Part shown: piece by piece, positions 1-22,948 of the stretch
How the letters are laid out: every line of letters starts with the position of its first letter
Numbering within the stretch: position 1 is the first letter of the stretch
Assembly (NCBI GenBank): GCA_964438165.1
Contig: CAYTJV010000045.1
Span: 1 to 22,948, forward strand
Length of the DNA: 22,948 nt
Source: an uncultured Planctomycetaceae bacterium
Lineage (GTDB): Bacteria > Planctomycetota > Planctomycetia > Pirellulales > Thermoguttaceae
Direction of reading: 5' to 3'
Notes under the pieces: generated by a model
What the model was told of the DNA's origin: nothing
Seen by the model: only the letters and a program-made list of their open reading frames with translations
Database searches by the model: none
Translations under genes and position numbers: made by a program

Positions 1-555
1 GTAGCGGAGCAACTCGCGGAAATGGTCGGGCCGGAAATGGGGCTCTTGGACCAGGAGTTGGCCAAACTCGCCCTGAGCACGGGCCCGCAAGGAGAAATCA
101 CCTCCGAGATGGTGGCACGCCTTGTGGGCGCCTGGCGTGCGAAGACCGCTTGGGACATGCTCGATGCCGCCCTGGAAGGCAGAACCCCCGAAGCCCTGCT
201 CCAATTCGACCGGTTGATCCTCGCCGGCGAGCACCCCGTGGCGATCTTGGCCCAGATTTCGGCCTCCCTGCGGCGTCTGGCCGCGGCAACGCGGCTGGTG
301 CTGGCCGCGGAGGCAGCCGGCCGCCGTTTATCGCCCCGAAGCGCGTTAGAACAGGCCGGCGTGAAGGGCTACTTCTTAGATAAGACCGAACGGCAGCTTC
401 GCCGGCTGGGACGCCATCGCGGTCAGCAGCTTTACCGCTGGCTGCTCAAGGCCGACATGGATCTTAAAGGCGACAGCCCTTCCCCGCCCCGCACGATCCT
501 GGAACGCCTGGTGGTGCAGATCTCCGCGGCTCCCGGCCCAGTGAAGATAACGTAA
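1..555 (+). CDS. holA: DNA polymerase III delta subunit-like protein, 3' part (5' end lies outside the window)
   Basis: The reading frame is open from base 1 (the window starts inside the gene) and stops at 555. The C-terminal helical region matches the HolA pattern (…LDQELAKLAL…GEITSEMVARLV…AWDMLDAALEGRTPEALLQFDRLILAGEHPVAILAQI…). The assignment rests on remembered family features, not a search. Confidence 0.55.
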   Translation, partial: VAEQLAEMVGPEMGLLDQELAKLALSTGPQGEITSEMVARLVGAWRAKTAWDMLDAALEGRTPEALLQFDRLILAGEHPVAILAQISASLRRLAAATRLVLAAEAAGRRLSPRSALEQAGVKGYFLDKTERQLRRLGRHRGQQLYRWLLKADMDLKGDSPSPPRTILERLVVQISAAPGPVKIT

Positions 556-587: not shown

Positions 588-621
588 AAAACTTCCGAAG
601 TCTCGAAGACTTCGGAAGTTT
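588..621. repeat. Copy 1 of a 33-bp perfect palindromic element (AAACTTCCGAAGTCT-CGA-AGACTTCGGAAGTTT), flanked by an A-run and a T-run. It sits 33 nt downstream of the holA-like stop, consistent with a bidirectional intrinsic-terminator-like hairpin (15-bp stem, 3-nt loop).
   Basis: Read directly from the sequence. The same 33-mer recurs in inverted orientation at 11401-11433 and 21738-21770. It is stop-free in all six frames, which is why the ORF track reads through it as TSEVFETSEVF. Confidence 0.85.
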
Positions 622-4690: not shown

Positions 4691-6028
4691 TCAGGCTTCG
4701 ACGACCACGAATTCGCAGCCCGCGTCGGTCCAGGTATCGGGCGGCATTCGCTCCAAGGCGAGGCCCGCGCTTCTTAGACGTTCGATGGCCTTGTCGGCGC
4801 GGCCTTGCGGATCCAACAGGGCAAAGGGCCCGACTCCGGCGAACACGTCGAGCGGCTGGAGCGTGAACAGGGCCCGAATCCGCTCGATTCCCGGCGGGCT
4901 CCCGACGACCCACTCCCGGCTCTCGTCCGGTCCGTTCAGCCCCACCGGCGCGCCGGTCCGCAGCCGGTAGTTCTCCAACAGCACGTACACCTGCCCGCTC
5001 GTGCCCAGGTCGAGCAAGGTGAGATAACAGTCGCGGTCGGTCTGGGCGTTGAGCGTGAACCGCTCGCCGATGCGAAACCAATCGCGGCTGGTCCGCGGCA
5101 CGGTGACGATGTCCCGGCTGGTGGGCCGGTTGCTGCGATCGGTCCAAATCCTGCCCGAGAAGGTAGGCCGGGGCTGCGCGACGCGGTTGATGGCGTGGAC
5201 GAGCGCCTCGGGCTGACGCGACGAGTCGACCTGCTTCGCCTTTTGCGTAAAGGCGTCCTGGCGAACCGCCTCAGCGCAGAGTTTGCAGTGCCCCGGCACA
5301 CTCTCGTCCTCGTGTTTGCGGCAGACCGTCTTGCGGCAGCGGGAGCAGGCAAGCCCCTGGTCGGCCGCGACCGGGCGCCCGCACTGGCCGAACCCGCACG
5401 CCGTGCGCTGCTCCGCACCCGCCGGACGCAGGGCAATCGGCTCCCAGCGGCACTCCGGCGCGGAAGCGGCCTCGTTCCCGAGGCCGAAACTCAACAGGTC
5501 CTTCACGTCGCTGCCGTACATCTCCTTGAGCTGCGAGAAATCGAGATGGATTCCGCCTTCGATGCGGACGCCCGCGCCCTGGCGGTGTCCCTCTTCGTCG
5601 ATCCGCACGAAGAAACTGCGGTCCGGGCACTCGAACGCCACGCCCTCTTCGGGCTTGCCGGCGGGGGTGACGACCACCCGCAGCGTCTCGACGGGCAGGT
5701 CGCCCGCGATGCCCGGCCGAAAAGGGAAGCTCAGCACCAATGGCTCGCCCCGCCGGCCCAACCGGCAGTATTGCTCCAGTTCGCTCGGCTCCTGCTCCAC
5801 GTACTTGCCGCGCCCGTGCAGCAGGAGCCGCACGGTCACGTCGCAGTCCGCGTCGGCCACGCGGGTCGCGCGCAGGCGAAGCTGGCACAGGCTGCCCCGC
5901 ACGTGAGGCCGATGCGTCTCCACCTCGAGCACGACCTCCGCCGATGCGCCGAGCGGGCGCCCGCACTCGCTGCAAAACGACGCCCCCGGTTCGGGCACGG
6001 CTCCGCAATGACCGCACGCCAGGTCCAT
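4691..6028 (-). CDS. Zinc-ribbon protein with a DUF4384-like C-terminal domain (last gene of the minus-strand ESCRT-like operon)
   Basis: An AAGGAG ribosome-binding site precedes the ATG. The N-terminus has CxxC…CxxC (MDLACGHCGA…CSECG), with a second Cys cluster mid-protein (CGFGQCG…CSRCRKTVC…HCKLC). The C-terminus (DCYLTLLDLGTSGQVYVLLENYRLRTGAPVGLNG…) resembles DUF4384, which is often fused or adjacent to kinases and caspases. The DUF4384 call is from memory. Confidence 0.6.
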   Translation of the reverse strand: MDLACGHCGAVPEPGASFCSECGRPLGASAEVVLEVETHRPHVRGSLCQLRLRATRVADADCDVTVRLLLHGRGKYVEQEPSELEQYCRLGRRGEPLVLSFPFRPGIAGDLPVETLRVVVTPAGKPEEGVAFECPDRSFFVRIDEEGHRQGAGVRIEGGIHLDFSQLKEMYGSDVKDLLSFGLGNEAASAPECRWEPIALRPAGAEQRTACGFGQCGRPVAADQGLACSRCRKTVCRKHEDESVPGHCKLCAEAVRQDAFTQKAKQVDSSRQPEALVHAINRVAQPRPTFSGRIWTDRSNRPTSRDIVTVPRTSRDWFRIGERFTLNAQTDRDCYLTLLDLGTSGQVYVLLENYRLRTGAPVGLNGPDESREWVVGSPPGIERIRALFTLQPLDVFAGVGPFALLDPQGRADKAIERLRSAGLALERMPPDTWTDAGCEFVVVEA

Positions 6029-9441: not shown

Positions 9442-9463
9442 GGTCCGGTCATCTCCGATCCTT

Positions 9464-9524
9464 AGTAGCAGGCACACTCCGTGTGCCGTCCGCCGGCTAC
9501 GGCACACGGAGTGTGCCTACTACT
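9464..9524. promoter_or_regulatory. Nested-palindrome hairpin. The arms AGTAGCAGGCACACTCCGTGTGCCGT / ACGGCACACGGAGTGTGCCTACTACT are separated by 9 nt, and each arm carries a 17-bp self-palindrome GGCACAC-NNN-GTGTGCC. It spans the stop codon of the AAA ATPase and the 5' leader of the ESCRT-III-like gene.
   Basis: Read directly from the sequence. The ORF track shows the mirrored peptide TAHGVCLLL on both strands. Confidence 0.5.
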
Positions 9525-10683: not shown

Positions 10684-10694
10684 CGCACTCCTCT

Positions 10695-10773
10695 CGTAGC
10701 TTGGCTCTCCAGAGCCGAGCAAATACGGTCAACATCGCGGAAAAATCGCTCGGCTCTGGAGAGCCAAGCTACG
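10695..10773. promoter_or_regulatory. Nested-palindrome hairpin. The arms CGTAGCTTGGCTCTCCAGAGCCGAGC … GCTCGGCTCTGGAGAGCCAAGCTACG have a ~28-nt loop, and each arm contains the self-palindrome GGCTCT-CC-AGAGCC. It occupies the junction between the Snf7-like stop and the ATPase ribosome-binding site and start.
   Basis: Read directly from the sequence. It has the same two-level palindrome architecture as 9464-9524 and 755-817. Confidence 0.5.
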
Positions 10774-11380
10774 GAGAGAGGACCTTTTCGACGCGCTGGG
10801 CCGCCTCGGCAACGCCCTCCGGCCGGCCGGCTTCTTCGGCGGCGCGGGCGTCTTCCATGGCGGCGACGATGGCTGCCAGGTCGGCATCCGGCTCGGCCTG
10901 CTCCGCGGCCTGCACCGCACCGTCCAGGGAGCCCAGCAGGCTGGTGAACTTCTCCATCTCGAACTGGCCTGCCACGGAGGCCCGCTCGACGTAGGCCGTC
11001 AGCTCCTCGACCGACATTCGAGAGATCACCGAGCCGACTGTGAGCTGCTGCAAGAGCGACATATTCTCCTTGATCTGCAAGAGCCCGTCGACGATCCGCA
11101 GGTGCTTGTGGAAGAACGCGAGCTGCTGGCCTTTGGCGCGGGCGGCGCTATCGAGCTGCTTGATCTTCCGCGCCAGGGCCAGCCGCTGCCGCGAGCTCGG
11201 GTCGTCCTTGCCCTTCATGAATGACTCGTGTTTGCGGGCTTCCAGCTCGTCGGTCTCGCGGCTGACGCGCCGCTCCAACTGCTCCAGGCGGATCTTTTCG
11301 TGCTTCAGCTCGTCGATCGTGAGCCGGTCGATGCCCTTGGGGCTGCCCAGCAAATTCCGCAGACGGTCAAGCAGCAACAT
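10769..11380 (-). CDS. Snf7/ESCRT-III-like coiled-coil protein (first gene of the operon)
   Basis: 203 aa, with a GGAG ribosome-binding site 7 nt before the ATG. The protein is all-helical and charged, with a heptad-like …KIRLEQLERRVSRETDELEARKHESFMKGKDD…RQRLALARKIKQLDSAARAKGQQLAFFHKHLRIVDGLLQI… that resembles Snf7/CHMP4 core helices. The C-terminal tail is acidic. This is weaker than the call for the downstream MGLF protein. Confidence 0.45.
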   Translation of the reverse strand: MLLLDRLRNLLGSPKGIDRLTIDELKHEKIRLEQLERRVSRETDELEARKHESFMKGKDDPSSRQRLALARKIKQLDSAARAKGQQLAFFHKHLRIVDGLLQIKENMSLLQQLTVGSVISRMSVEELTAYVERASVAGQFEMEKFTSLLGSLDGAVQAAEQAEPDADLAAIVAAMEDARAAEEAGRPEGVAEAAQRVEKVLSP

Positions 11381-11400
11381 CGCAACGCTCCTGCATCCGC

Positions 11401-11433
11401 AAACTTCCGAAGTCTTCGAGACTTCGGAAGTTT
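11401..11433. repeat. Copy 2 of the 33-bp palindromic element (AAACTTCCGAAGTCTTCGAGACTTCGGAAGTTT), lying between the kinase stop (11436) and the Snf7-like start (11380)
   Basis: An exact core match to copy 3 and the reverse-complement orientation of copy 1. It is followed by TTTTG on the plus strand. Confidence 0.85.
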
Positions 11434-11435
11434 TG

Positions 11436-13721
11436 TTACCCCTTCTTATACAACACCGTGCCGACGTCTTTCATCGACTCGCAGACGCACAGGCCCTCGG
11501 CCGCGAGGATGCGGCAGACCTGGTCCGCTGCCTTGCGGCTGATCCCCAGTTGCTCCACGAGCGTCGCCAGGGCAATCGAAGCGTGCTCGGCGAAATGCCG
11601 CCCGATCCATTGCCGCGCCCGCTCCAGCACGGCCGCGCTGACGTCGGCAGAGAACGCCTCGCGCCATGCCGCCAGACGCTCATCCGTTTCCGCCCAGCGG
11701 AAACGCGCTCGATCGCGGTCGTAGAGCACGACGCTCACCAGCCGGTCGCGGAAGGGCCGCGGCCCCGCGCCGCTGGCCATCTGGAGGGCCTCGTCCGTCC
11801 ATCCGGTCGGGCTGGCGAGGATGACCAAACGCCACGTTTTTTCGTCGGCCGCCTGGCGCGCGATCCGATTGAGCAACGACTCCAGTTCCGTCGCGGCGAC
11901 CGGCTGATCGTCGTAACCTTCGGCGGCGAAGCGGCCGGCGTGCAGCACGCTTCGGGCCTCGACCACCACGCGGGCCGTGGTTTTCCACAGCCCGCGCTGC
12001 CGCACCTCGTACACCATTCGGTCCCCCGACGGGCCGTGAATTCCCGCACGGCGCGACGCGTCCGACACGGCCCCGGCCGCGCTCGAGTCGTCATCCGCGG
12101 CCCTTCGGGTGCGCCGCTGGGAAAAGTCGCCCACGGAAATCACGGCCTGCCGCACCGGGTCCACCACCTCGGAGACCTCCGCGAGCGCGTTCTCCACGAC
12201 ACGGAAAAACGTCTCCTCGGCCAATTCCGCATCCGCAGCGGAAACGGCGGGCAGGGTGGCGGCCTGCGCGGGGGCTGGCTTCTGCTCGACCACTTCGGCA
12301 GGATCGCGGGGCAAGTCGCGGGCAACCGGCGGCGGGCTGGCCGCTGGCGCCGCATGCGCGCGGCAGCGCCGCACCTTCCCCGCTCGCCAACAGGCAGAGC
12401 ATATCGATGCCCCGCAGACCTCGCAGGTCCCCGCACTGCTGAGCTTTGAGAGCATGGGCTTGCCGCACGCCGCGCAGCGGTCGAACGACGCATTCCCACT
12501 CGGCCGTCCCGCCTCAACGGCGCGAACTCGCTGTTCGGGCACTCCGGGAGTCTGAAGCGGCAGGGTGGCATCGTGTCCGGCCAGGTACGCGTCGATGGCC
12601 TGAATGAAGTCCTCGGCCGTCTGGTACCGCTGCTGACGCTCGCGCGCCATGGCGCGGCGGATCATGTCGCCCAGCCGGCGCGGCACCGCGGGGTTGAGCT
12701 GGCAGGCGTCGGGCGGATCCTCCTCGCGGATCCGCCGGATCACGACGTACGGATCCGATCCCGCAAACGGCACCGCCCCCACGAGCATCTCGAACAGCAT
12801 CGTCCCCACGGAGAACAAGTCGCTCCGGCCGTCGAGGTCGCGCGTCCCGGCAGCCTGCTCAGGCGACATGTAGCTCGGGCTCCCCAGGACGGTTCCCTCC
12901 ATGGTCTGTTGGCAGGCATCGGCCATGCCGCGGGCCAGCCCGAAGTCGGCCAGCTTCGCCGTCCCCGTGGCGTCTTCCAGGATCACGTTGCCCGGCTTGA
13001 CGTCGCGATGGATCACGCCTTGCGCGTGCGCGTGGCCCAGGCCGGCGAGGACCTGGCGACACAGGGCCAGCGCCGCCGGCGGGTCGAGGCGGCCCTCTTC
13101 GGCGATCCGCGAGGCCAGCGAGCGGCCCTCGACGTACTCCATGTCGATATAGGGCATATCGTTCTCGATCCCCACCGAGTGTACCGCCACCACGCTCGGG
13201 TGCTTGAGTTTGGCCGCGGCGCGGGCCTCGCGGAGAAAGCGTTCGCGGGCTTCGGGGTCGTGGAGCCGCGAGGGGGCCATGAGCTTGAGGGCCACGGTCC
13301 GCTGGAGCGTTCGGTCGACGGCCTGGAGCACGACGCCCATCGCCCCCATGCCCACCAGCGCGATCACGTCGTAGGAGCCTAAGCTGGCGATGTACTTCGG
13401 GTCTTGGGGCAAGTCCAACAACAGGCCGCCGGCCACGACAACCCGGTCGCCGCGGACCTCCACGTGCGGAAATCGTGGGAAGTGCGCGGCGCGGATGGCC
13501 TCGAAATCGGCGTCGTGGGCCGGAGCGTCCTGGCCGATCAAGGCGGCCAGCTCGTCGGTCGGCCCCATGGCCTCGTCGAAGCGCTTTCGGCAAAGGGCGC
13601 AGCCGTCGAGGTGTTTCTGCACCTGGGCCTCTTCGTAAGCCCTGGCCAGTCCGGCCGCCACGCGGGTCAGGACGTCGGGTGAGGGGCACTGCGGGGAATG
13701 AGCCGACTGGGGTTCAGACAT
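11436..13721 (-). CDS. Fusion of an anti-sigma factor (ZAS motif) with a Hanks-type Ser/Thr protein kinase, plus a C-terminal zinc-ribbon and unknown domain
   Basis: The start is taken at MSEPQS…, 2 nt after the sigma-factor stop. The N-terminus carries HLDGCALC (an H-x3-C-x2-C zinc anti-sigma motif). Kinase motifs are ALKLM, HRDVKPGNVIL, DFGLAR and SPSYMSPEQ. A later CAACG…CEVCGASICSAC forms a zinc ribbon. The C-terminal ~250 aa are of unknown family. Confidence 0.8.
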   Translation of the reverse strand: MSEPQSAHSPQCPSPDVLTRVAAGLARAYEEAQVQKHLDGCALCRKRFDEAMGPTDELAALIGQDAPAHDADFEAIRAAHFPRFPHVEVRGDRVVVAGGLLLDLPQDPKYIASLGSYDVIALVGMGAMGVVLQAVDRTLQRTVALKLMAPSRLHDPEARERFLREARAAAKLKHPSVVAVHSVGIENDMPYIDMEYVEGRSLASRIAEEGRLDPPAALALCRQVLAGLGHAHAQGVIHRDVKPGNVILEDATGTAKLADFGLARGMADACQQTMEGTVLGSPSYMSPEQAAGTRDLDGRSDLFSVGTMLFEMLVGAVPFAGSDPYVVIRRIREEDPPDACQLNPAVPRRLGDMIRRAMARERQQRYQTAEDFIQAIDAYLAGHDATLPLQTPGVPEQRVRAVEAGRPSGNASFDRCAACGKPMLSKLSSAGTCEVCGASICSACWRAGKVRRCRAHAAPAASPPPVARDLPRDPAEVVEQKPAPAQAATLPAVSAADAELAEETFFRVVENALAEVSEVVDPVRQAVISVGDFSQRRTRRAADDDSSAAGAVSDASRRAGIHGPSGDRMVYEVRQRGLWKTTARVVVEARSVLHAGRFAAEGYDDQPVAATELESLLNRIARQAADEKTWRLVILASPTGWTDEALQMASGAGPRPFRDRLVSVVLYDRDRARFRWAETDERLAAWREAFSADVSAAVLERARQWIGRHFAEHASIALATLVEQLGISRKAADQVCRILAAEGLCVCESMKDVGTVLYKKG

Positions 13722-14301
13722 CGATCTGCTCCACCGCTTCACGGAGCTTGGCCAGCACGCGCGACTTGCCCACGTACACGTTGCCGACGGTCGTCTGCAA
13801 TTGTTCCGCAACCGTTTCCGGCGGGATCCCGTTGAGCACCGAGCGGCGGAAGGCCTCCCACGTGAGCGGCTGCACGGCCGCGCGCACCCGCTTCATGGCG
13901 ATCTCCAACACCCGGCGCCGATGCTCCTCCTCCACCCACGCCTCCACGGCCTGGCCGGAATCGGCAATCCCGGCGACGATCCGAACGTTGTCCGACCCGC
14001 CCGGCGCCGACGGCTTGCGGGCCTGTCCGTGGAAGTGGCGATACGCGCGGTGGCGGGCGACCGTGCTGAGCCAAGCGCGGAACGACTTGCTCGGATCGTA
14101 CTCGAACGGCTTGCGCGCGATGCGGTTCATCACGATCTGCATCACATCCTGCTGCAAGTCGAGGGCGTCCTGGTACGCCACGCCCATCCGCAACAGGACC
14201 CGCAACACCAGCGGCCCATACAACTCCACGAACTCCTGCCAACTCGCCTGGTCGCCGAGATTCCGCACGCGCAACAAGAGACTGGGCCGAGTTCTTTCCA
14301 C
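13714..14301 (-). CDS. ECF (group IV sigma-70) RNA polymerase sigma factor
   Basis: Region 2 and region 4 motifs read …RPSLLLRVRNLGDQASWQEFVELYGPLVLRVLLRMG…DLQQDVMQIVMNRI… and …VLEIAMKRVRAAVQPLTWEAFRRSVLNGIPPETVAEQLQTTVGNVYVGKSRVLAKLRE. The start is proposed at GTG 14301 (VERTRPSLL, with GGAAGG 8 nt upstream). An in-frame ATG at 14463 would add an Arg/Cys/Gly-rich leader and is less likely. The gene is translationally coupled to the kinase gene. Confidence 0.7.
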   Translation of the reverse strand: MERTRPSLLLRVRNLGDQASWQEFVELYGPLVLRVLLRMGVAYQDALDLQQDVMQIVMNRIARKPFEYDPSKSFRAWLSTVARHRAYRHFHGQARKPSAPGGSDNVRIVAGIADSGQAVEAWVEEEHRRRVLEIAMKRVRAAVQPLTWEAFRRSVLNGIPPETVAEQLQTTVGNVYVGKSRVLAKLREAVEQIDV

Positions 14302-14684
14302 CCCGGGCGCCTTCCAGCCGTTCGGGCGAGTTGCTCTCAGAGGCTGCCCGGAAACGGGGCCGGGCCCCCTACATCGTGTGCGAGGTCGAGCCCCGACACA
14401 CAACCGGGAGCCAGTCCCCGTTTCCGAACCGTCTCTCACTTCCTTCCCGCAAAGCGCGATCATTCTAACCGACCCAGACCTGTATTTGCAGGGGGTGCGT
14501 TCACCTGCCGCTTCCGCGTCGGCACGTTCCGAAGAGCCATGCAACGATGACTAGCCCGGGAAGTGAAGAATCTTACACGAAAAACCTGGGAATGGCGTGG
14601 GAGCGGACTGCCCCCAGCGGCCGAGGAGCGGCAAGACAGGGGGGAGGCGAGACGCCGCCAAGCCAGAAGCAAGGAATCGCTCGC

Positions 14685-14963
14685 TCAGCGCTTTGATTTG
14701 CCGCGAGAAGATCGATACTTTTCGCTTAGCGCCCGGCGATTGAGGAAATGTGCGAACCAGGGGAGCGGGCCGAAGGACTTGGCTCTTTCCTTGTGGGCCG
14801 CGCCGAACAAGGGAAATGCGACCGCACCCAAAGCCCCGGCCGCGGCGCCAATCAACAGGCCCGACACCGCGCCCATGCCCGCGCTCAGGTACAACAGGAT
14901 CAGCCATCCTCCCAGAAGGATCGATCCGATCGTGATGACCACCTTGTTGTCGCTTTCGTCCAT
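14685..14963 (-). CDS. Small glycine-zipper membrane protein
   Basis: 92 aa, with GAGGAG 6 nt before the ATG, overlapping the end of the upstream kinase gene. Two TM segments are rich in GxxxG/A (ITIGSILLGGWLILLYLSAGMGAVSGLLIGAAAGALGAVAFPLFGAA), followed by a basic tail. It resembles the YeaQ/YmgE/transglycosylase-associated small-protein style, but the family is uncertain. Confidence 0.5.
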   Translation of the reverse strand: MDESDNKVVITIGSILLGGWLILLYLSAGMGAVSGLLIGAAAGALGAVAFPLFGAAHKERAKSFGPLPWFAHFLNRRALSEKYRSSRGKSKR

Positions 14964-14987
14964 CGCTTGGTCTCCTCGCGGTCCTGT

Positions 14988-16886
14988 TTACGATTGCAGG
15001 ATCGCGCCCACCGCAATCCCACCGATCGCGCCGGCGACCAGCCCGCCGATCGGGCCTGCCAGCGCGCCGACAGCCAGACCGAGCACCGCGCCGGCAACCG
15101 CGCCGCCCACAACGCCGGCGAACATCGAGACGCGTCGGGCGGTCTGTTCATCCCGCTTCAGCAGGTCGCCGTCGCGCGCCGCAAGATACTCGCCCCGGAG
15201 TGCCCGATCGTCCGGACGAGCCGTAACCAGTTCCCGCAGCGATGGACCGACTGTCGCTCGCGCCTCCGCCGCGTGCGGGCCGTTGGGATAGGAACTCAAG
15301 TAGCTCCGGTAACCCTCTGGGCTCGGGGCCTGGTGGACCGCGTTCCAGGCCAATTCTTGCTGGTGGGCCTCGTGTTTGTCAAGCTGCTGGAGGAGTTTTT
15401 CCACGGAAGGATCGTGGGGAGCCAACTGGCGGAGCCGCTCTGCCTTGGGCCGCAGTCCCTCGTAATTCTTGCTGGCGATCTGGTCCTTGATCTCCTGGCG
15501 CAACTGGGCGATCGCCTGCATCGACGTCTGCGCTTGACCGAGCACATTCTTAGCGCGGTCGAGCAAATCAGCGAGTTCGGGGTTGTGGAAGGCGTAGGGA
15601 ATCTCCTCCAGCAAGTTGACGGCCTCGGCGAACTTTCCCGCCTTCATCCATTCGTTCGCCTGCCGTATGGCCTCGTCGCGTTTCTTCTGCGCGGCGGCGT
15701 ACTCCTGTTGTACGACCGGGAGCTCCATTTCGGCCCATTTGGAAAGCCCGCGCTGGTTAGGGTCCACCGACAAGGTCATGGCGCGCAGGGTGTTGATCGC
15801 CTCCTGATACCGCGACTCGGAACGCAGAGTGGCCACCCGATCGGCAACGGCCTGGGCCTCATCGTCTGCGGCCTTCTTGCTCTGGTCGGGGGCCTCGACC
15901 GCGGGCGCTTGCTTCAACCGCGAATCCAACCCCGCAAGCGCCTGCTCGAATTCCGCGGCGGTCTGATACCGCTTCTCCCGGTCCTTGTGCAGGGCCTTGG
16001 CCAACACGGTCCGCAAGACCTCGGGGACCTCGCTCTCCCGGAAAAAACGCGGATTCTGCCCCGACAGCGCAAACCACAGCGTCCCCCCCATCCCGTAAAT
16101 GTCCGCCCGTTGGTCCACCTTCGACGCATCCACCTCCTGCTCCGGCGCCCCGTACCCAAGCGTCAACAACTGCGCCCCGGCCAGGGTGGCCCCCTCCTGC
16201 TGCGTGTTCACCTGCCGCGCCAGGCCGAAATCCGCCAGCTTCGGCTCCCAGTCCTCGTTGAAAAGGATGTTCGCCGGCTTGATGTCCCGGTGGATCACCC
16301 CACGCTTGTGCGCGTACTTCACCGCGCTGCAGAGCTTGATTCCCAGCCCCACGGTCTTGGCTAGGTCCAGCGCCCCCTTCGCCTTCACCAGCTCGTCCAG
16401 GTCCAGCGGCGGGTTGGGCGCCTCCGCAGGCCAATCGGCGCGCCCACCGGCCTCCGGACCCGCCACGTATTCCATGGCGATGTAGGGCCCCTCCGAGTCC
16501 TCGTCCATCGCGTAGACCTGCACGATGTGGAAGTGGGCTAACGATCCCACCGACTGGGCCTCAGTGTGGAACCGCTGCAAGAGCCGGCTATCCTCGGCGA
16601 ACTGTTCCGACAAGCGCTTCAAGGCCACCCAGCGATTCAGGCGGACATCCTGGGCCAGGTTCACCGTGCCCATCCCGCCCTTGCCGATCAGGTGGACCAC
16701 GCGATACTTGTCGCCGGTGCCGCCGCGCCGCTCGCCCTGGTCACCGGCGGCCGTGCTGCCGACGCCGCCATCGGCGAACGTCGCCCCGTACACGTTTTCC
16801 GGACCCGACGGCGGTTTGGCCGGCCGGGGCTGCGATCCGCTCTGGGGCGATTGTTGGCCGGCGTCGCTGATGGTGCGATCGTCCAT
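14988..16886 (-). CDS. Hanks-type Ser/Thr protein kinase with a C-terminal helical (TPR-like/coiled-coil) region and a glycine-zipper TM tail
   Basis: GGAGG ribosome-binding site. Kinase motifs are GKGGMGTV, VALKRL, HRDIKPANILF, DFGLAR and GYGAPEQ. The C-terminus is …MFAGVVGGAVAGAVLGLAVGALAGPIGGLVAGAIGGIAVGAILQS. Confidence 0.8.
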   Translation of the reverse strand: MDDRTISDAGQQSPQSGSQPRPAKPPSGPENVYGATFADGGVGSTAAGDQGERRGGTGDKYRVVHLIGKGGMGTVNLAQDVRLNRWVALKRLSEQFAEDSRLLQRFHTEAQSVGSLAHFHIVQVYAMDEDSEGPYIAMEYVAGPEAGGRADWPAEAPNPPLDLDELVKAKGALDLAKTVGLGIKLCSAVKYAHKRGVIHRDIKPANILFNEDWEPKLADFGLARQVNTQQEGATLAGAQLLTLGYGAPEQEVDASKVDQRADIYGMGGTLWFALSGQNPRFFRESEVPEVLRTVLAKALHKDREKRYQTAAEFEQALAGLDSRLKQAPAVEAPDQSKKAADDEAQAVADRVATLRSESRYQEAINTLRAMTLSVDPNQRGLSKWAEMELPVVQQEYAAAQKKRDEAIRQANEWMKAGKFAEAVNLLEEIPYAFHNPELADLLDRAKNVLGQAQTSMQAIAQLRQEIKDQIASKNYEGLRPKAERLRQLAPHDPSVEKLLQQLDKHEAHQQELAWNAVHQAPSPEGYRSYLSSYPNGPHAAEARATVGPSLRELVTARPDDRALRGEYLAARDGDLLKRDEQTARRVSMFAGVVGGAVAGAVLGLAVGALAGPIGGLVAGAIGGIAVGAILQS

Positions 16887-16924
16887 GGGGATTCCTCCAC
16901 TGGTTCTGTACTACGAACCTCAAA

Positions 16925-17002
16925 TTCAGGGTTCGGGGTTCGGGGGTCGGGATTCCCGTTCAAGCGTCTCCTCCGAGTCCTGAACCCTGAACCCCGAACC
17001 CT
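16925..17002. promoter_or_regulatory. Imperfect inverted repeat built from tandem G-tract heptamers (AGGGTTCGGGGTTCGGGGGTCGGGATTC … GAGTCCTGAACCCTGAACCCCGAACCCT). It lies between the SPFH-paralogue stop and the kinase start and is a candidate terminator, attenuator or G-quadruplex element.
   Basis: Read directly from the sequence. There are four G-runs of 3-5 on one arm and the complementary C-runs on the other, with an ~18-nt loop. Confidence 0.4.
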
Positions 17003-17004
17003 TT

Positions 17005-18933
17005 CTAGGGTTGTCCTTCCTGCGGATCCGGGGGCTGTCCCTGCGGCGCCACGTTGATGACCTGCTGCGGGCCGGTCACCTTGGCAAGCTCCTTGGCCGA
17101 CTGGTACTGTCCCCACTGCTTCACCGCTTCCTGGAGCAACGCGGTGTACTGCTCGTTGTTGCTGGCGTACGATTTGGACAGCTCGTCGCGGAATTTCTCC
17201 TGCATTTGGAACTGCTCCCGCTGGTTTCCGGCCTGCACGCTGGCGGCGTAGGCGGCGGCCAGTTGCGGATTCTCGGCCAGGGCGATGGTGAGCACGGAAT
17301 CGGGAGGGAGGTTGGCGTATTCCCTCAACATGCGGATGCGGCGATTGAGCTGCGACTCCTGCTGTTCGTCTTGCAGCCTCAACGCCTGGCCGTGCATCTC
17401 CATGGCCAACCTCATCTTTTCCTTCTGCAACTCGAACCGGGCGTGTTCCGCCGCCGTGTTCATCTCGATCTCGTGCCGGCGGGCGGCGCCGTCCATTTCC
17501 AGTCGGCGCTGCAATTGCTCCGCGCGCAACAGGTCCTTGTCGCGATCCGTTTCGCGGGCCTCCTTGATCACATGCCGGTCCAGCGCGGCCTGATCCGAAG
17601 CCATCGACATCTCGGTCTCGGTTTCCACGTGAGAGACGTCCTGGGCCTCCGCGCTGTCCATGCGCCGCTGTTCGCGGCCGATCTCCAATTCTTCTTTGCG
17701 GTCGACGAGTTGCTCGCGCTGCAAGGCATTGTCGCCGCGGCGCTTGAGAAGCTCTTCGTAACGCGGACAGATGAAGCGAAACGCCGACACCCGCTCGATC
17801 TTTAGGCCGTACGTGTTGAACGTCGTCGACATGATCCTCTGAAGGTCGCCGGCCACGCGCTCGCGAACCTCGACGGTGTTGTACAAGCGCTCGGCTTTCT
17901 CGTTGCGCACGGCCTCGATCACCGCAGCGAGGAACTCCATGCGGATTTGCTCGTAGAATTCGGCCACGGTGACGGGGACGGGCTTGGCCAGGCTGGGGCC
18001 TTTGGCCCCGGCGCCAAAGAGAACCCGGCCGACCAACTCCATGGGAAATCCAAACAGCTTCCCCACCAGCCCGCCGTGTTTGGGTTGCTGGTCTTCCGCC
18101 ATCCCCAGGGACTTCTTCTGATCCGGGCTGAGCTCCCGCAATTTCCGGTCGATGAACATCTGCAGCAGCCTCACGGGGTCGGCGCAGCGGAGAACGACCT
18201 GGGCCGTGGCCGCCCCGAGGAGGTTGTCGGCCGTGCGGATGCTCGAGCCCCGCAGCGCCGCCTCGACTTCAAAGGCCCATTTGGCCTCGTGCTCTTCGGA
18301 AAGCGTTTCAATGTCGGGGAGGAAGAACGTGGTTGCCAACGGCCCCTGTGCGACCGTGCAGAGGAACACCGGACGCATTTCCTTACCTGCCTCCAGGGCC
18401 AGCCCGAAGCTCTTGCCCAGCCCGCGCCGCGATACGTCGTACTCCCCCGCCTGCAGTACCGCCGTGCGGTGAATCTGGGACACCATGAACGTACACGTCC
18501 CGGGTTGGACCGCCAACTTCTTGATGTTCGGCAAGCTCCCATCGGGCAACTGGTCGGTGACCGTAATCAGGACCAAAGGGAGCTTCGCCATCTGCTCTTT
18601 GGAGGCCCTGGCCCGATTAAAGATGGCCCTCGCGTCAACCTCCTCGATCGGGTTATTCTGCGCGTGGAGCTCGGCGTGACAGTACATGCAGTAGCGGGCC
18701 TCGAACGTCATCTTCTGGCACTTGGGGCATTGGATCCGCTTCGATGCCGCACGGCTCGGCTTGGGATCGGTCACATCGGTGAGTGCTCCACCGCCGGACA
18801 CCGCGGAGAGCGAACCGGCGGTGATGGAATCGCGCTCTAGCCGGGCCGAAGGCAGCTCGGCCAGACAGTGCGTGCAGTACCGGGCCTCGGCCGTCATCTT
18901 GTTGCACGAAGGGCACTTGATTTGCTTGGGCAT
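17005..18933 (-). CDS. Flotillin/SPFH-like protein with an N-terminal double zinc ribbon and a long coiled coil (paralogue of 6041-7942)
   Basis: AAGGA ribosome-binding site. Two CxxC…CxxC units (MPKQIKCPSCNK…CTHC; CPKCQK…CMYC). The SPFH-like core reads …VQPGTCTFMVSQIHRTAVLQAGEYDV…VVLRCADPVRLLQMFIDRKLRELS… and has the same architecture as 6041-7942. A long E/R/Q-rich coiled coil follows. Confidence 0.6.
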   Translation of the reverse strand: MPKQIKCPSCNKMTAEARYCTHCLAELPSARLERDSITAGSLSAVSGGGALTDVTDPKPSRAASKRIQCPKCQKMTFEARYCMYCHAELHAQNNPIEEVDARAIFNRARASKEQMAKLPLVLITVTDQLPDGSLPNIKKLAVQPGTCTFMVSQIHRTAVLQAGEYDVSRRGLGKSFGLALEAGKEMRPVFLCTVAQGPLATTFFLPDIETLSEEHEAKWAFEVEAALRGSSIRTADNLLGAATAQVVLRCADPVRLLQMFIDRKLRELSPDQKKSLGMAEDQQPKHGGLVGKLFGFPMELVGRVLFGAGAKGPSLAKPVPVTVAEFYEQIRMEFLAAVIEAVRNEKAERLYNTVEVRERVAGDLQRIMSTTFNTYGLKIERVSAFRFICPRYEELLKRRGDNALQREQLVDRKEELEIGREQRRMDSAEAQDVSHVETETEMSMASDQAALDRHVIKEARETDRDKDLLRAEQLQRRLEMDGAARRHEIEMNTAAEHARFELQKEKMRLAMEMHGQALRLQDEQQESQLNRRIRMLREYANLPPDSVLTIALAENPQLAAAYAASVQAGNQREQFQMQEKFRDELSKSYASNNEQYTALLQEAVKQWGQYQSAKELAKVTGPQQVINVAPQGQPPDPQEGQP

Positions 18934-18943
18934 CGCAAAATCC

Positions 18944-20770
18944 TTAACTCGCTGCGGGAGTCGAAGTCATGTTGGGAGCCAGATATTGTGCGTCATCCAC
19001 GGGAGTGGGCAGGATCTGCCAAACGATCCGGTGGCGACCGCCGAGCACGCACGCTTGCTGCGGAGCCAAGATCTGCCAGGCCCCGTCCGATGAACACGCC
19101 AACAACTCGGGGCCGCGCTGGGGGTCCCGTTGCCAGGCTAGCCACAACACCGGCGCTTGATTTCCGGGCGGCACAAACGCCACGGGGAACCGGCCGTCGG
19201 TCAAGAGGTAACTGAGTTGTTCCGCGAGCGTATCGTTTCGGTACAGCCATAAGGTGTGTACGTGGCCGTCACACGCCTGGAGCCGCACCTGAAAGGGCAC
19301 CACCTGGGCCGGCTCCAGCCGGTCGTCATCGGCCAGCAGGCACGGCGCCGCTCTGGGCAGTCGCTCCCCGTTCACCCAGGTGCCGTTCGTGCTCCGGTCG
19401 GCGGCCCAGGCGCGGTCATCGCGCAGCTCCAGCGAGGCGTGACACCGCGACAAGCGGCCGTGTTGATGGGCGTCATAGGGCGAGGGGCGAAGCCACCAGG
19501 CGACGGCCGGATCTCCGCCCCGGCCGAGACTTGCCGACGCTCCGCACACTGCCGAGATTGCATGCCGCAGGCCCGTGTGCTGATCGTATACCCATACCGC
19601 CGCTTGCGCGCGGGCCCCGGCGGGCCAGCCGTGCTCCGACGCAGAGGCCGGCACGTTCCAACCGGCGGGCTCAGGACACGCGCCGGCCAGGCGACGGATG
19701 AAGGCATGGTCGGGTTGCAGCTCCAGGGGCTGCCAGCCGCCCGCACTGCCCAATCCACCGAGGCCCAGGTCAAACCCCTGGGGGCCCGACATCGGCGGAG
19801 CGCCCCCCACGATAAACACGTCGCCGCCCGCGTGAATCTCCTTCTTCTCCTCGTCCTCGATATTGATCACCCAAGAGGCGGTCCAGCGTCCCAGCGGCAA
19901 ATTGGCAGGCGTCTTGACCGTCAGGACGAACCGCAGGGAATCGGCCCCCGCCCATTTCGGCACGAACCGCAGGGCCTGGAACTCCTGCATCTGGCCGGAG
20001 ATCAGCCTGGTTTGAAACGCCCCAGGCGCAGACAACAACTCGGAGCCGACGTTCAACTCCACCACCGATTCCGACGAAAGATGCTCGCCGCGCACGCGAA
20101 CACGAAGCAGGCTTTGCTGGTTCTTCCGGTATTTGCCGGATGCTTCGACTTCCACGCACACCGGTCCGCCGCCAACGCCGAGGGTGGGGATCGTCAGCGG
20201 GCCGGCAAACCCGCCGGGGATCGACGGCATGGCGGGCATCGGCGGCATGGTCGGCATCGTCCCTGGGCCAGCGCCCGGTTGCACGACCGGGCGCCCGGCG
20301 GATTGCACAGGCAGACGATTCGCCGCTGCCGACGCCTCGCTCGTGGACTGGGGGGCGTCTCCGGCTTGGAATAGGGTAAGCATCTCCTCGTACTTGCCGG
20401 TCGACTGAGGCGATTGAGGCAACTGGGGCGTCGTCTTCCGCGGTGGGGCCGCCGCCGTGGCCGAGTCCCCGGAAAACAGGGACAGCATCTGATCGAAAAC
20501 CTTGCTCTGGCCGGCTCCCTGGGATAGCCCTTCGGATGGTCCCGCGGCGGCAGGTTGCGGATCGGCGGCCGCCGGCTTAGAGAGCGCATCCCGCGACGGC
20601 CCTTCGACCGCGTCTCCGCAAGAGGGGCAGAAGCTGACGTCAGGGGGGAAGGTGAGCGTGCATTCCGCTTTCCGACAGAACGCGACCCCTTCGCCACAGG
20701 CCGGACATTGCCCCGCACCGAAGGGGACGGGACTGCCGCAAGCATAACATTCGTACTCTTGTCCGCTCAC
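18944..20770 (-). CDS. Zinc-ribbon / FHA-domain protein
   Basis: The N-terminus is YECYACGSPV…CPACGEG…CPSCGD. A long Pro/Ala/Gly-rich linker with MPxMP repeats follows. The C-terminal FHA pattern reads LGRGGDPAVAWWLRP…SRCHASLELRDDRAWAADRSTNGTWVNGERLP. The start overlaps the stop of the upstream gene by 4 nt (ATGA). Confidence 0.7.
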   Translation of the reverse strand: MSGQEYECYACGSPVPFGAGQCPACGEGVAFCRKAECTLTFPPDVSFCPSCGDAVEGPSRDALSKPAAADPQPAAAGPSEGLSQGAGQSKVFDQMLSLFSGDSATAAAPPRKTTPQLPQSPQSTGKYEEMLTLFQAGDAPQSTSEASAAANRLPVQSAGRPVVQPGAGPGTMPTMPPMPAMPSIPGGFAGPLTIPTLGVGGGPVCVEVEASGKYRKNQQSLLRVRVRGEHLSSESVVELNVGSELLSAPGAFQTRLISGQMQEFQALRFVPKWAGADSLRFVLTVKTPANLPLGRWTASWVINIEDEEKKEIHAGGDVFIVGGAPPMSGPQGFDLGLGGLGSAGGWQPLELQPDHAFIRRLAGACPEPAGWNVPASASEHGWPAGARAQAAVWVYDQHTGLRHAISAVCGASASLGRGGDPAVAWWLRPSPYDAHQHGRLSRCHASLELRDDRAWAADRSTNGTWVNGERLPRAAPCLLADDDRLEPAQVVPFQVRLQACDGHVHTLWLYRNDTLAEQLSYLLTDGRFPVAFVPPGNQAPVLWLAWQRDPQRGPELLACSSDGAWQILAPQQACVLGGRHRIVWQILPTPVDDAQYLAPNMTSTPAAS

Positions 20771-22623
20771 TGCGACCGCTCCTCCACGTCACAGATCAGC
20801 CGCACGCCCAGGTCCCCGGCCCGGGTGCGCTTGCACATCGACAGCCTCGCAGAGACCCGCAATTCCGCGGGCGACCGGGATCGCCAACTCCCGCCTCGCA
20901 CCGTGCGGGCCTCTCCGCTCAAAACGCCACCGGCGCTCATGACTGTCCCGGGGGCGATCGGCCCATAGGCGCTGCTCGTCCACTCCCAGACATTGCCCAA
21001 CACGTCGATCAGCCCCCACGGATTGGCCCGCGATGGATCGGCGGGCCGGGGCCCGTCGCCAGCGAACACAGCGGGAGGACACGGGCCGAGCGGCTTCGCG
21101 GGGCCTGCTTCGGCCGCGGACGGGTCGCGGTCCGAGCCAACGGGTCGAGAACCGGCGCCGGTCGCCCACCAGGACGAACCGCTCGTCCCGGCACGCGCCA
21201 TGTACTCCCATTCGGCCTCGGTGGGCAATCGGTACCGGCGACCGTCCAGACTGTGCATCCAGGCGCAAAGCACCTCGGCATCGGCGAGGCTGAGGTCGAC
21301 GGCCGGCAGGCCGTCCGCGGCCACTGTCCCCCGGCACTGCGACGCAAACGAGCGGTCGCGCCTCAGCGCGTCCTCGGCCGGGTCGCAATCCACCGACAAG
21401 GAGTCGAGGAAACGCCGCACCACGGCGACGGTCAGCGGAAACTCCGCGGCCCAGAGATCTTGCTCGATGGCCATCTTCAGCCGCGGCAGCTCGTCGGCCC
21501 GCGCACTCCCGTCCCCGGGCGATGCTCCGAACACGAACGCCCCGCGACGAATGAGGTGAAATCGAATCCCCAGCGCATTGGTCCATGGCGACTTGACCGC
21601 CTCAACCTGCTCGCGCTGGCTCGGCCGGGACCGCTGCTCAGTGGCAATCGCTCCTGAGGGCGCCGCCACGGAATCCGAAGCCGGTGAACGAAGTGGAACC
21701 GTACCGACACGTAGGTCAGGCTTTCCATGACGAACGTAAACTTCCGAAGTCTTCGAGACTTCGGAAGTTTGTGGATGGGCTCCAAGTGGAACCGCACCTA
21801 CGTGCTTGAACCGCAGGCGCACGGGCTGACCGTGGACTTCCACGTAGGGGCGTTGCGCTTCGGCCTCAGGTAGCTCGCGCCACGCGCTACTGTGCATCCG
21901 CTCCCCCACTGCCTCGCTGAGGTCGGTGACGGCCAACTCGCCCCCCTGGAATTCGCGCAAGTATCCGAGAAGGTGATAACAGAACCAACCGTGACCGGCG
22001 ACGGGGTATTCGTACGACCGCTGCCCTTCCCAACAGGCACTGATCACCGAGCGAAGCTGGCGCCGATGGCCACCGACATCCGCCCGCGCGCGATCGTCCT
22101 TGGCCAAGGCGCGAATGTCGCGAGCCATGGCCGCATTCAGCGCGTCGCTCTCAACGCTCCGCGCCAGCGCGCGGGCATCGTTTCGACATGCATCCAGAAT
22201 CACCAGTTGTTGTCCCGCGCTCAGATGGCGCGTGTAATCGCGGAGGATTTCCAGCGAAATGGCGGTGTCGCGCAAGAGCAACTCGGAGGCCGGCTCCGAG
22301 TCTGCGGTCAGCAGGTAGGTTCCCTCACCCAGCGAAAATCCATGGCCGGCAAAATAGAGAAGGAAGGTATCTTCGGGGCCCATGGGCGCCTTCGAGAACT
22401 TGTCGAGGGTGCGAAGCACCTCGGGCCTCCGCGGGACTTCGGCGCCGGGACGTGCCGGCGACGTGAGCATCAAGCACCGATCGTCGTCGAGGTCCATTCG
22501 CTGGCTCAACAACTCCCGCACCGCGAGCACGTCGGCCACAGCGAACTTGAGGGGCTGGACTGCTCGGCTCGCGTACTCGTTGACTCCGATCAACAGCACG
22601 TACAAGCGGCCACCAGTGCTCAT
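20767..22623 (-). CDS. Caspase (peptidase C14)-like domain fused to an FGE/SUMF1-type (formylglycine-generating-enzyme-like) domain
   Basis: AGGGAG ribosome-binding site 5 nt before the ATG. The N-terminal caspase-like His/Cys dyad is LYVLLIGVNEY…YFAGHGF…LVILDACRND. The C-terminal FGE-domain motifs are RLPTEAEWEYMARAG, GNVWEWTSS and VRGGSWRS. The 33-bp palindrome copy 3 lies in-frame in the linker, so a two-gene interpretation cannot be excluded. Confidence 0.65.
   Translation of the reverse strand: MSTGGRLYVLLIGVNEYASRAVQPLKFAVADVLAVRELLSQRMDLDDDRCLMLTSPARPGAEVPRRPEVLRTLDKFSKAPMGPEDTFLLYFAGHGFSLGEGTYLLTADSEPASELLLRDTAISLEILRDYTRHLSAGQQLVILDACRNDARALARSVESDALNAAMARDIRALAKDDRARADVGGHRRQLRSVISACWEGQRSYEYPVAGHGWFCYHLLGYLREFQGGELAVTDLSEAVGERMHSSAWRELPEAEAQRPYVEVHGQPVRLRFKHVGAVPLGAHPQTSEVSKTSEVYVRHGKPDLRVGTVPLRSPASDSVAAPSGAIATEQRSRPSQREQVEAVKSPWTNALGIRFHLIRRGAFVFGASPGDGSARADELPRLKMAIEQDLWAAEFPLTVAVVRRFLDSLSVDCDPAEDALRRDRSFASQCRGTVAADGLPAVDLSLADAEVLCAWMHSLDGRRYRLPTEAEWEYMARAGTSGSSWWATGAGSRPVGSDRDPSAAEAGPAKPLGPCPPAVFAGDGPRPADPSRANPWGLIDVLGNVWEWTSSAYGPIAPGTVMSAGGVLSGEARTVRGGSWRSRSPAELRVSARLSMCKRTRAGDLGVRLICDVEERSQ
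21738..21770. repeat. Copy 3 of the 33-bp palindromic element, located inside the caspase-FGE ORF (in-frame, 11 codons, translated as TSEVSKTSEV)
   Basis: An exact core match to copy 2. It sits between the caspase-like and FGE-like domains. Confidence 0.85.
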
Positions 22624-22948
22624 CGGGGCTCCCTAGGGATGACGCGAGTCCGAACAACCTAATCCACGGAGCAATAAATGCCCCCCAATGGGCATAGGTA
22701 CACTTGGTGGACCCCTTAGATGGGGCTCTTTGTATTATCTCCTCATCCAAAGTGTACTGCAATGCCCCGGCCATGCGGATCGAAATGCCTGTTGCCCGGT
22801 TTACTCCGCCGGTCGGATGCCGTTCATCCAATTAACAGGCTTGCGGACATCCCTTCGGAGTTAGCATAGCCACCCTCGCCGGCGTCCCTAACACAGGCGG
22901 GTCAAAGGGATTACACGGGTAAGACCCCTTCCCAAATCTTTACCAAGA

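Follow-up and report, generated by a model that had tools for sequence, protein, structure and literature searches.

An in-frame palindromic repeat in the linker of a caspase-FGE fusion gene from an uncultured planctomycete and its relationship to a RAYT-linked repeat family

Here, we examined a stretch of 22,948 nucleotides from an uncultured Planctomycetaceae bacterium (contig CAYTJV010000045.1 of GenBank assembly GCA_964438165.1, positions 1 to 22,948; the whole stretch is called the window below), with emphasis on a caspase-like/FGE-like fusion gene at positions 20767..22623 of the minus strand. This open reading frame (ORF) has 618 open codons and no internal stop, and its 618-aa product combines a Peptidase_C14 (caspase) domain (residues 8-263, 21835..22602; Pfam E-value 1.7e-16, 61.0 bits for a cut-off of 21.4) with an FGE-sulfatase domain of the SUMF1/EgtB/PvdO type (residues 358-610, 20794..21552; Pfam E-value 7.6e-29, 101.6 bits for a cut-off of 23.3). 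NCBIfam concurred with Pfam in finding a caspase domain and a SUMF1/EgtB/PvdO-type domain in this ORF. The linker between the two domains contains a perfect 33-nt palindrome at 21738..21770. An earlier note on this DNA had proposed either a genuine fusion that tolerated insertion of a repeat element or two separate genes whose boundary is masked. Our results favor the former: with a probability of about 0.8, this is a real fusion gene whose disordered linker took up ∼93 nt of repeat-derived DNA from a family of repetitive extragenic palindromes (REPs; REPINs in their doublet form) linked to REP-associated tyrosine transposases (RAYTs). In addition to what that note had reported, we describe the insert as a 93-nt block with a second REP remnant, the RAYT-linked family itself and its in-frame copies in many genes.

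The ORF at 20767..22623 is one genuine caspase-FGE fusion gene. A homologue search yielded 404 proteins at E-value ⩽1e-10, 120 of which were listed, and most of these best 120 of the 404 carry both Pfam domains on a single chain. His94 and Cys146, the catalytic pair of C14, were invariant across 30 aligned homologues. Among the matches listed, the closest relatives were P0003 (617 aa) and P0004 (799 aa), single chains that align over 99% of the query, with identities of 52% in the caspase half and 59% in the FGE half and only 28-29% in the linker. The same two proteins were nearest to the caspase half and to the FGE half alike. The two halves thus have a common history, which speaks against both an assembly chimera and two genes.

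The palindrome in the linker (copy 3 of three in the window) has the form AAACTTCCGAAGTCT-TCG-AGACTTCGGAAGTTT, with 15-bp arms and a 3-nt loop. As the earlier note had stated, it lies in frame in a stop-free ORF: it begins at the second base of codon 285, spans codons 285-296 and is read as Q-TSEVSKTSEV-Y, so that it encodes residues 286-296 (TSEVSKTSEVY); the 33-mer contains no stop codon in any of the six reading frames. At the RNA level, the 33-mer alone folds into a hairpin of -21.6 kcal/mol (z -6.4) and the mRNA of 21685-21810 reaches -50.3 kcal/mol (z -4.9). AlphaFold2, with 30 homologues in the input, predicted two confident domains and placed the palindrome-encoded residues inside a disordered 65-residue stretch between them (residues 279-343, 21595..21789 on the minus strand; predicted local distance difference test score <50, no secondary structure). 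The FGE domain does not start ∼30 aa after the element, as was previously suggested, but ∼48-62 aa after it: AlphaFold2 predicts order from residue 344, and the Pfam match starts at residue 358.

The palindrome is part of a probable inserted segment of 93 nt (21709..21801, minus strand, codons 275-305), whose composition resembles non-coding DNA. The G+C content at third codon positions (GC3) was 0.32 in these codons (0.21 without the palindrome codons) compared with 0.78 in the rest of the ORF, and a profile along the ORF fell from ∼0.8 to ∼0.4 across codons ∼271-320. Besides the palindrome, the block contains a remnant of a GTAG-tagged REP (21711..21731 on the plus strand, GTAGGTCAGGCTTTCCA-TGAC), from which 3 nt of the 3' arm are absent; positions 21708-21727 match 20 of 20 bases of a GTAG-tagged REP, GTAG-GTCAGGCT-TTCC-AGCCTGAC, that is present three times in a Planctomycetales metagenome-assembled genome (MAG; L048). 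Judged by this sequence match, two REP-type elements of different kinds form a small cluster in the caspase-FGE linker. At the borders of the block lies an 18-nt direct repeat, whose left copy (21691..21708, plus strand, AAGTGGAACCGTACCGAC) encodes the second of two VG[AT]VPL peptides and whose right copy (21784..21801, plus strand, AAGTGGAACCGCACCTAC) lies 93 nt, or 31 codons, away; the duplication of the peptide runs through this repeat. The two copies agree at 16 of 18 positions and share an 11-nt exact core, which was reached in 2 of 300 shuffles. A 9-nt inverted repeat also has partners on both sides of copy 3.

In agreement with an insertion into a tolerant site, the TSEVSKTSEVY segment could be found in none of the aligned caspase-FGE homologues, whose linkers vary in length, and subtraction of 31 codons from the linker gives approximately the linker length of P0004. 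The orthologue comparison that the earlier note had called for has therefore come out on the side of an insertion into a fused protein: the closest homologues are single fused chains that lack the segment, the architecture is common, both halves point to the same relatives and the linker is disordered. The case in which orthologues carry the 11 residues as ordinary linker was not seen among the aligned homologues. It could still be supposed that an ordinary linker sequence resembles the repeat by coincidence, as S, T, E and P abound in such variable linkers, and P0003 has a loosely similar PSESAPPSAKVTA stretch. However, copy 3 is identical to copy 2 at 33 of 33 bases, and also to copy 1, and three exact copies were observed in the window where 0.00 were expected (100 shuffles). 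Together with the low GC3 of the block and the absence of the segment from aligned homologues, this exact 33-nt identity excludes coincidence for practical purposes. It was also observed that the linkers of P0003, P0012, P0016 and P0019 contain CxxC...CxxC zinc-ribbon-like motifs (alignment A1, columns ∼340-390), which are not present in the window protein.

The two-gene reading holds that a stop-free, terminator-like hairpin hides a gene boundary and that a separate FGE gene starts at a non-ATG codon. It gains some support from the normal position of the palindrome family directly past stop codons (see below), from the existence of caspase-only and FGE-only homologues (P0007, P0009 and P0023) and from in-frame GTG codons. 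However, hundreds of homologues have both domains on a single chain, the closest ones spanning 99% of the query. The previous observation that no Met or obvious start lies between the domains stands: no ATG is present there, GTG occurs in frame only at codons 319 and 364, codon 364 is already within the FGE domain, and no recognisable ribosome-binding sequence could be identified upstream of either. The shared nearest relatives of the two halves and the P0004-like length of the linker without the 31 codons also argue against two genes. The suggestion that the element is terminator-like did not survive, since the hairpin has no U-tract, copies 2 and 3 were not called as intrinsic terminators (G+C-rich stem plus T-run) in a scan of 9000-22948, and the tail amounts to no more than TTTG or TTTT, with no T-run. 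Two genes with a masked boundary are therefore very unlikely.

An assembly chimera, in which two loci were joined through the 33-nt repeat into an artificial fusion, would be conceivable because the repeat has at least three exact copies in these 23 kb, is short enough to mislead small k-mers and lies on a contig from a draft assembly. On the other hand, the two nearest relatives that both halves share at similar identity are themselves fused, the reading frame is intact, and the 18-nt direct and 9-nt inverted repeats span the palindrome and tie both sides to one locus. Moreover, the caspase-FGE gene and the gene that follows it (18944..20770, 608 aa, FHA domain) overlap in the usual operon manner, the stop of the former and the GTG start of the latter sharing a GTGA at 20767-20770. 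We consider such a chimera highly improbable, and keep the view that a real fusion gene received an insert.

The other two copies of the palindrome in the window lie outside genes. Copy 1 (589..621, loop CGA on the plus strand) is 33 nt past the stop of ORF 22..555, which encodes a DNA polymerase III delta C-terminal domain, and copy 2 (11401..11433) is 2 nt past the stop of a Ser/Thr kinase gene (11436..13811, minus strand), upstream of ORF 10769..11380 on the same strand. No longer element common to the three copies could be defined, as the CCATGAC and TGGAT similarities in their flanks were not significant in shuffles (p ⩾0.1), and neither GTAG nor GTGG adjoins any of the three. Rfam gave no match at gathering score in the window, and at the palindrome only chance-level hits to miRNA hairpins. 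The window also contains three GTAG-tagged REP doublets (REPIN-like) between genes, at 751-819, 9464-9524 and 10695-10773, with RNA folding energies of -61, -49 and -65 kcal/mol, respectively, and z-scores of -10 to -12. Their sequences all differ, so that the source genome carries several REP families; it is evidently rich in REPs.

To place the palindrome in a wider context, genome contigs were scanned for exact matches to the core CTTCCGAAGTCT-NNN-AGACTTCGGAAG, which yielded at least 116 stretches; the figures below cover 127 exact-core copies from the 116 genome loci listed plus the window, and organism names are those in the record titles of the MAGs. Most hosts among the matches listed were Chloroflexota (Anaerolineae and others) and Planctomycetota (Gemmataceae, Planctomycetaceae and Pirellulales) MAGs, with a few from other phyla. 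The commonest form among them was AGACTTCCGAAGTCT-NNN-AGACTTCGGAAGTCT, whereas the AAA...TTT ends of the window palindrome were found again in a Gemmataceae MAG. The loop triplet varies freely, with 29 triplets represented among the 127 copies. Each 15-mer arm is itself palindromic, and the 33-nt unit thus resembles two inverted REPs; variant copies show paired changes in both arms that keep the long hairpin but not the half-palindromes. Adjacent target-site duplications occurred at chance level only in the 123 copies listed for this comparison.

The default place of the palindrome family is the 3' end of genes, to which window copies 1 and 2 conform. Almost a quarter of the copies (24%) lay 0-10 nt past the stop codon of an ORF no shorter than 150 aa, compared with 1% of random positions, and 39% lay within 0-30 nt, compared with 5%. 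Longer forms of ∼97 nt, which share these 15-nt termini (AGACTTCCGAAGTTT...AAACTTCGGAAGTCT) and whose interior is conserved, were identified in the genome 'uncultured bacterium' CAZOAL (L025:909-1005, L037:1759-1857, L037:6023-6120 and L050:1366-1462), in both orientations and with no target-site duplication. Tandem duplications, each with a copy of the palindrome and its flanks, were also seen at L041:7369-7474 and L071:3033-3194 (79 nt and 135 nt). The core was present in four viral contigs as well, and was very dense in some of them. One contig of 29.9 kb, assigned to a tailed phage by matches to a large terminase and a tape measure protein, has at least 10 copies. The tailed-phage contigs (L117, L119, L121, L123 and L124; IMG/VR records UViG 3300006641_000114, 3300025872_000400 and 3300006917_000353) have a GC content of 0.60 and about one perfect copy per 3 kb, mainly in short gaps separating co-directional ORFs, with a few copies overlapping a predicted ORF start. 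No Y1 transposase was identified among the ORFs checked in the palindrome-dense phage (terminase, tape measure, Mu Gam-like, HNH and nuclease). Partial motifs GAGACTTCCG and CGGAAGTCTG adjoin some of the phage copies.

The genes near the copies in the genome loci pointed to a partner enzyme. A RAYT-like ORF of ∼200 aa has the palindrome on both flanks in a Planctomycetaceae MAG (L038:4978-5571, minus strand) and in an Anaerolineales MAG (L007:3884-4486, minus strand), and the two proteins are 42% identical. For Pfam Y1_Tnp (cut-off 23 bits) they scored 29.5 and 18.9 bits, and for the NCBIfam REP-associated tyrosine transposase model (cut-off 80 bits) 78.9 and 54.1 bits, respectively. A search of PDB sequences with the L038 protein gave 4er8 (TnpArep of E. 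coli) as the sole match, and the alignment of the RAYT-like proteins (A3) shows an HUH motif MPNHYHVL, an FQG motif and a tyrosine motif Y[LI]H[LA]NP. When metagenomes were scanned with the L038/L007 alignment, 533 relatives were confirmed, and 80 of them were retained. By the criterion of a perfect hairpin of at least 12 bp no more than 150 nt from the gene, a hairpin was present upstream in 33 of 73 and downstream in 32 of 72 of these genes for which the flank was available, and on each side in 17 of the 65 with both flanks. Almost all of these hairpins had the 15+3+15 structure, and their sequence shifted with the transposase lineage (for example, AGACTTCCGAAGTCT, AGACCTCCGAGGTCT, AGAACTCCGAGTTCT, ACAAACCCGTTTTCT, AGGTGGGACGCACTT, AGCTTCCCGGAAGCT and AACCTTGCGAAGGTT). 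The exact AAA...TTT arm variant of the window lies ∼120 nt upstream of a RAYT-like gene in L184. We also looked for a recurrent neighbour gene by an all-against-all BLAST of the ORFs from the 116 loci listed; the large clusters were ordinary enzymes and regulators, and the RAYT pair formed a small two-locus cluster. On these sequence relationships, the most plausible identity of the palindrome is that of a REP belonging to a clade of RAYT-like tyrosine transposases, which by its motifs would resemble TnpAY1 subclass 2.1.

The RAYT-like genes also carry the palindrome within their own coding sequence. In 20 of the 80 relatives, an in-frame copy of the gene's own palindrome lies inside the ORF, and 18 of these copies are located ∼200-230 nt past the start, just after the HUH motif (L160, L161, L163, L165, L169, L170, L173, L174, L177, L148, L149, L157, L178, L179, L206 and others). 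The Anaerolineales gene has such a copy as well, at L007:4249-4281. These copies always read TSEV..TSEV, or NSEF..NSEF in a variant family, and match the flanking copies of the same gene in sequence.

In-frame copies are carried by conserved proteins as well, at loop or linker positions. Copies were found within the Pfam envelopes of S-methyl_trans in MetH (L029), GDC-P in GcvPB (L009), Type_ISP_C in a Type ISP enzyme (L045), Methyltransf_28 in a Gemmataceae methyltransferase (L104) and DUF1349 in a DUF1349 protein (L076), and also between the domains of HsdR (L064), past the domain of a DNA methylase (L011) and ahead of the MAM domain of an InhA-like peptidase (L034). Compared with solved structures, the palindrome forms a 16-aa insertion in MetH (8g3h and 8ssc) and a 15-aa insertion in GcvPB (1wyt_B). 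The frame T-S-E-V-x-x-T-S-E-V was used at 12 of 13 independent in-gene sites (binomial p ∼2e-5, assuming equal frames). For MetH, we compared 120 Anaerolineales-type orthologues (P0121-P0240), in which the loop after LADEY[AS] usually has 5-6 residues but accommodates many different inserts. The palindrome is present in P0121, P0122 and P0124 and, as a decayed copy that is still in frame (L127), in P0128; the four copies occupy one nucleotide position, although each of their four flanking codons differs. In one copy, two synonymous changes compensate each other, GAA>GAG being paired with ACT>ACC. A second palindrome in this loop, GTTGAACGTTTA-ACGT-TAAACGTTCAAC, is read NVERLTLNV. Other inserts in the loop (L125-L130, around codons 109-132) include an A-rich 7-mer repeat IKNQKSEIQN and sequences of ESRIS type and PSP...GRGDRGEG type, and P0124 and P0217 have an extra TSEV copy near residues 672-683.

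These observations bear on the possibility that the in-ORF hairpin is kept for a function, as a site for RAYT or another protein, as an RNase III or attenuation site that yields a caspase-only product, or as a translational pause between the domains. The compensated change in one MetH orthologue retains the stem while the four flanking codons vary, the RAYT relatives hold their palindrome in frame at one homologous position in 18 of 80 cases, a single frame predominates, and copy 3 is identical to the two intergenic copies of the window. However, the decayed copy and the many insert-free orthologues show that the element is dispensable for MetH, the compensated variant might have arisen by independent insertion or by gene conversion from a variant subfamily present elsewhere, and peptide-level selection alone can explain the frame bias. 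On balance, a functional hairpin in the linker of the caspase-FGE gene seems improbable. A broader proposal, which we regard as possible but on balance doubtful, is that the hairpin is under selection even in coding sequence, that it is the REP partner of a subclass-2.1-like RAYT and that it has spread across phyla, possibly carried by phages. Compensated stem changes, the preferred frame and the conserved in-frame copy in the transposase gene are what would argue for selection on the hairpin; if this were true, the linker copy would have a function as a nucleic-acid signal within an ORF and would be no neutral passenger.

Under our preferred explanation, uptake of repeat-derived DNA by the linker of a real fusion gene, the inserted DNA would consist of a damaged GTAG-type REP followed by the 33-nt perfect palindrome, whose family accompanies a RAYT-like (HUH/Y1, IS200-like) tyrosine transposase clade. 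A RAYT acting on single-stranded DNA hairpins would have placed the linker copy and left no target-site duplication. At the usual spot of the family, a few bases past a stop codon, the likely role of the 15-bp RNA hairpin is to protect or shape the transcript's 3' end. Since the unit has 33 nt (11 codons) and its arms are stop-free, a copy inserted into a loop or linker that tolerates it would simply be translated, rather than removed, usually adding T-S-E-V-x-x-T-S-E-V. Such a copy would survive selection in the caspase-FGE gene since the linker is disordered and the encoded peptide small and hydrophilic.

It should be noted that several results weigh against this explanation. The 23-kb window contains no RAYT gene, and the evidence for the partner enzyme comes from other genomes. 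The RAYT-like proteins fall just below the NCBIfam cut-off (78.9 at best for 80), and flanking hairpins were found in under half of the relatives by our strict criterion. A GTAG or GTGG guide tetranucleotide is absent from the consensus of the 127 copies. The scan demanded an exact match to 24 fixed arm bases, and the apparent perfection of the arms is partly a matter of ascertainment. The 18-nt direct repeat around the block is ill-suited to a mechanism without duplication. Finally, no empty site could be defined for the caspase-FGE gene, for which the best homologue is ∼50% identical.

Some other features of the window were also recorded. Two Ser/Thr kinases, a Band7/zinc-ribbon protein and a DUF4384 protein are encoded near the caspase-FGE and FHA genes, and these surroundings look like a signalling neighbourhood. 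The 5' end of the caspase-FGE gene (22591-22622) shares a 32-nt direct repeat (75% identical) with positions 4976-5007 inside a DUF4384-domain ORF (4691..6028, minus strand), where it may represent a second caspase-like N-terminus. Runs of a G-rich pentamer (AGGGTTCGGGGTTCGGGGGTCGGGATTC and its complement) form an imperfect inverted repeat, 86% complementary, at 16928-17002 between two minus-strand genes.

For annotation, our results call for keeping one caspase-FGE gene and marking ∼31 residues of its linker as repeat-derived. More generally, they define a REP family that is compact and simple to recognise (15+3+15, without a GTAG tag) and is linked to RAYT-like genes in Chloroflexota and Planctomycetota, two phyla in which repeat biology has barely been described. 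A full-text literature search with the arm sequence matched only unrelated PCR primers, and the family and its RAYT-like partner appear not to have been described in the literature searched. The family offers many natural cases of hairpin DNA turned into protein sequence in conserved enzymes, and could be used to study the target choice of RAYTs, selection on hairpins embedded in coding sequence and the seeding of linker or loop peptides by repeats.

Comparison with known systems places the palindrome closest to REP/REPIN elements and their RAYTs. RAYT-type enzymes act on single-stranded DNA hairpins and leave no target-site duplication. In agreement with this group, the palindrome is short and has many dispersed copies mostly just downstream of genes. 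Adjacent target-site duplications were at chance level in the 123 copies compared, and the block around copy 3 is bounded by a distant 18-nt direct repeat. Copies flank a single Y1/HUH transposase gene in other genomes (L038 and L007), and the exact window variant adjoins a relative in L184, similar to the REPtron arrangement, a RAYT gene flanked by REPs, that has been described previously (PMC2817692, PMC3733652, PMC6006769). The repeat sequence co-varies with the transposase lineage, and the doublet of two inverted self-complementary 15-mers recalls REPINs, as known from Pseudomonas fluorescens (PMC3116915). Unlike classical REPs, however, the 33-mer has no GTAG or GTGG guide tetranucleotide, its length is fixed at 33 nt with a perfect 15-bp stem and a 3-nt loop of free sequence, and identical sequence is shared by MAGs assigned to different phyla and, at high density, by a tailed phage. 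The motifs of the partner proteins (NHYH, FQG and Y[LI]H.NP) resemble TnpAY1 subclass 2.1, a likeness in motifs only. Subclass 2.1, or TIRYT, is characterised by NH[YF]H, FQ or W[EQ], Y[IV]HLNP and a C-terminal HTH extension (PMC6006769, PMC3733652), and no REP-like sequences were found for it (PMC6006769).

Reading of a REP-type repeat through a coding linker is an already known kind of event. Di Nocera et al. (2013; PMC3733652) reported REPs, often as dimers or clusters, that lie wholly inside ORFs and add 20-30 or more residues, with shorter homologues free of the insert. The caspase-FGE linker, with a two-REP cluster that adds ∼31 residues, is very similar; however, the REPs in that study were GTAG- or CGTC-tagged and mainly from Proteobacteria, whereas the in-frame copies described here prefer one frame. 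The linker copy also resembles the Rickettsia palindromic elements in being an in-frame palindromic insert that is presumably translated as an extra peptide. Those elements are ∼100-150 bp in length, are restricted to Rickettsia, and are inserted in frame and translated in conserved enzymes at sites compatible with the fold; they are not known to have a partner transposase. The palindrome described here, with 33 nt, other hosts and an unrelated sequence, works alike but is not a member of that group, which is mentioned in PMC3733652 and PMC10969869.

Two further kinds of element share some of these properties. Similar to miniature inverted-repeat transposable elements, the palindrome is non-autonomous and has terminal inverted repeats, as in the ∼97-nt CAZOAL forms with the same 15-nt termini, but neither a target-site duplication nor a DDE transposase with the same termini was found. 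The byp elements of yeast mitochondria and T4 gene 60 are short hairpin-forming mobile inserts in coding sequence; byp elements disrupt the frame, and the ribosome skips them. In contrast, the palindrome always has 33 nt and is stop-free in the frames used, and even its decayed copy stays in frame, so that read-through translation suffices as an explanation.

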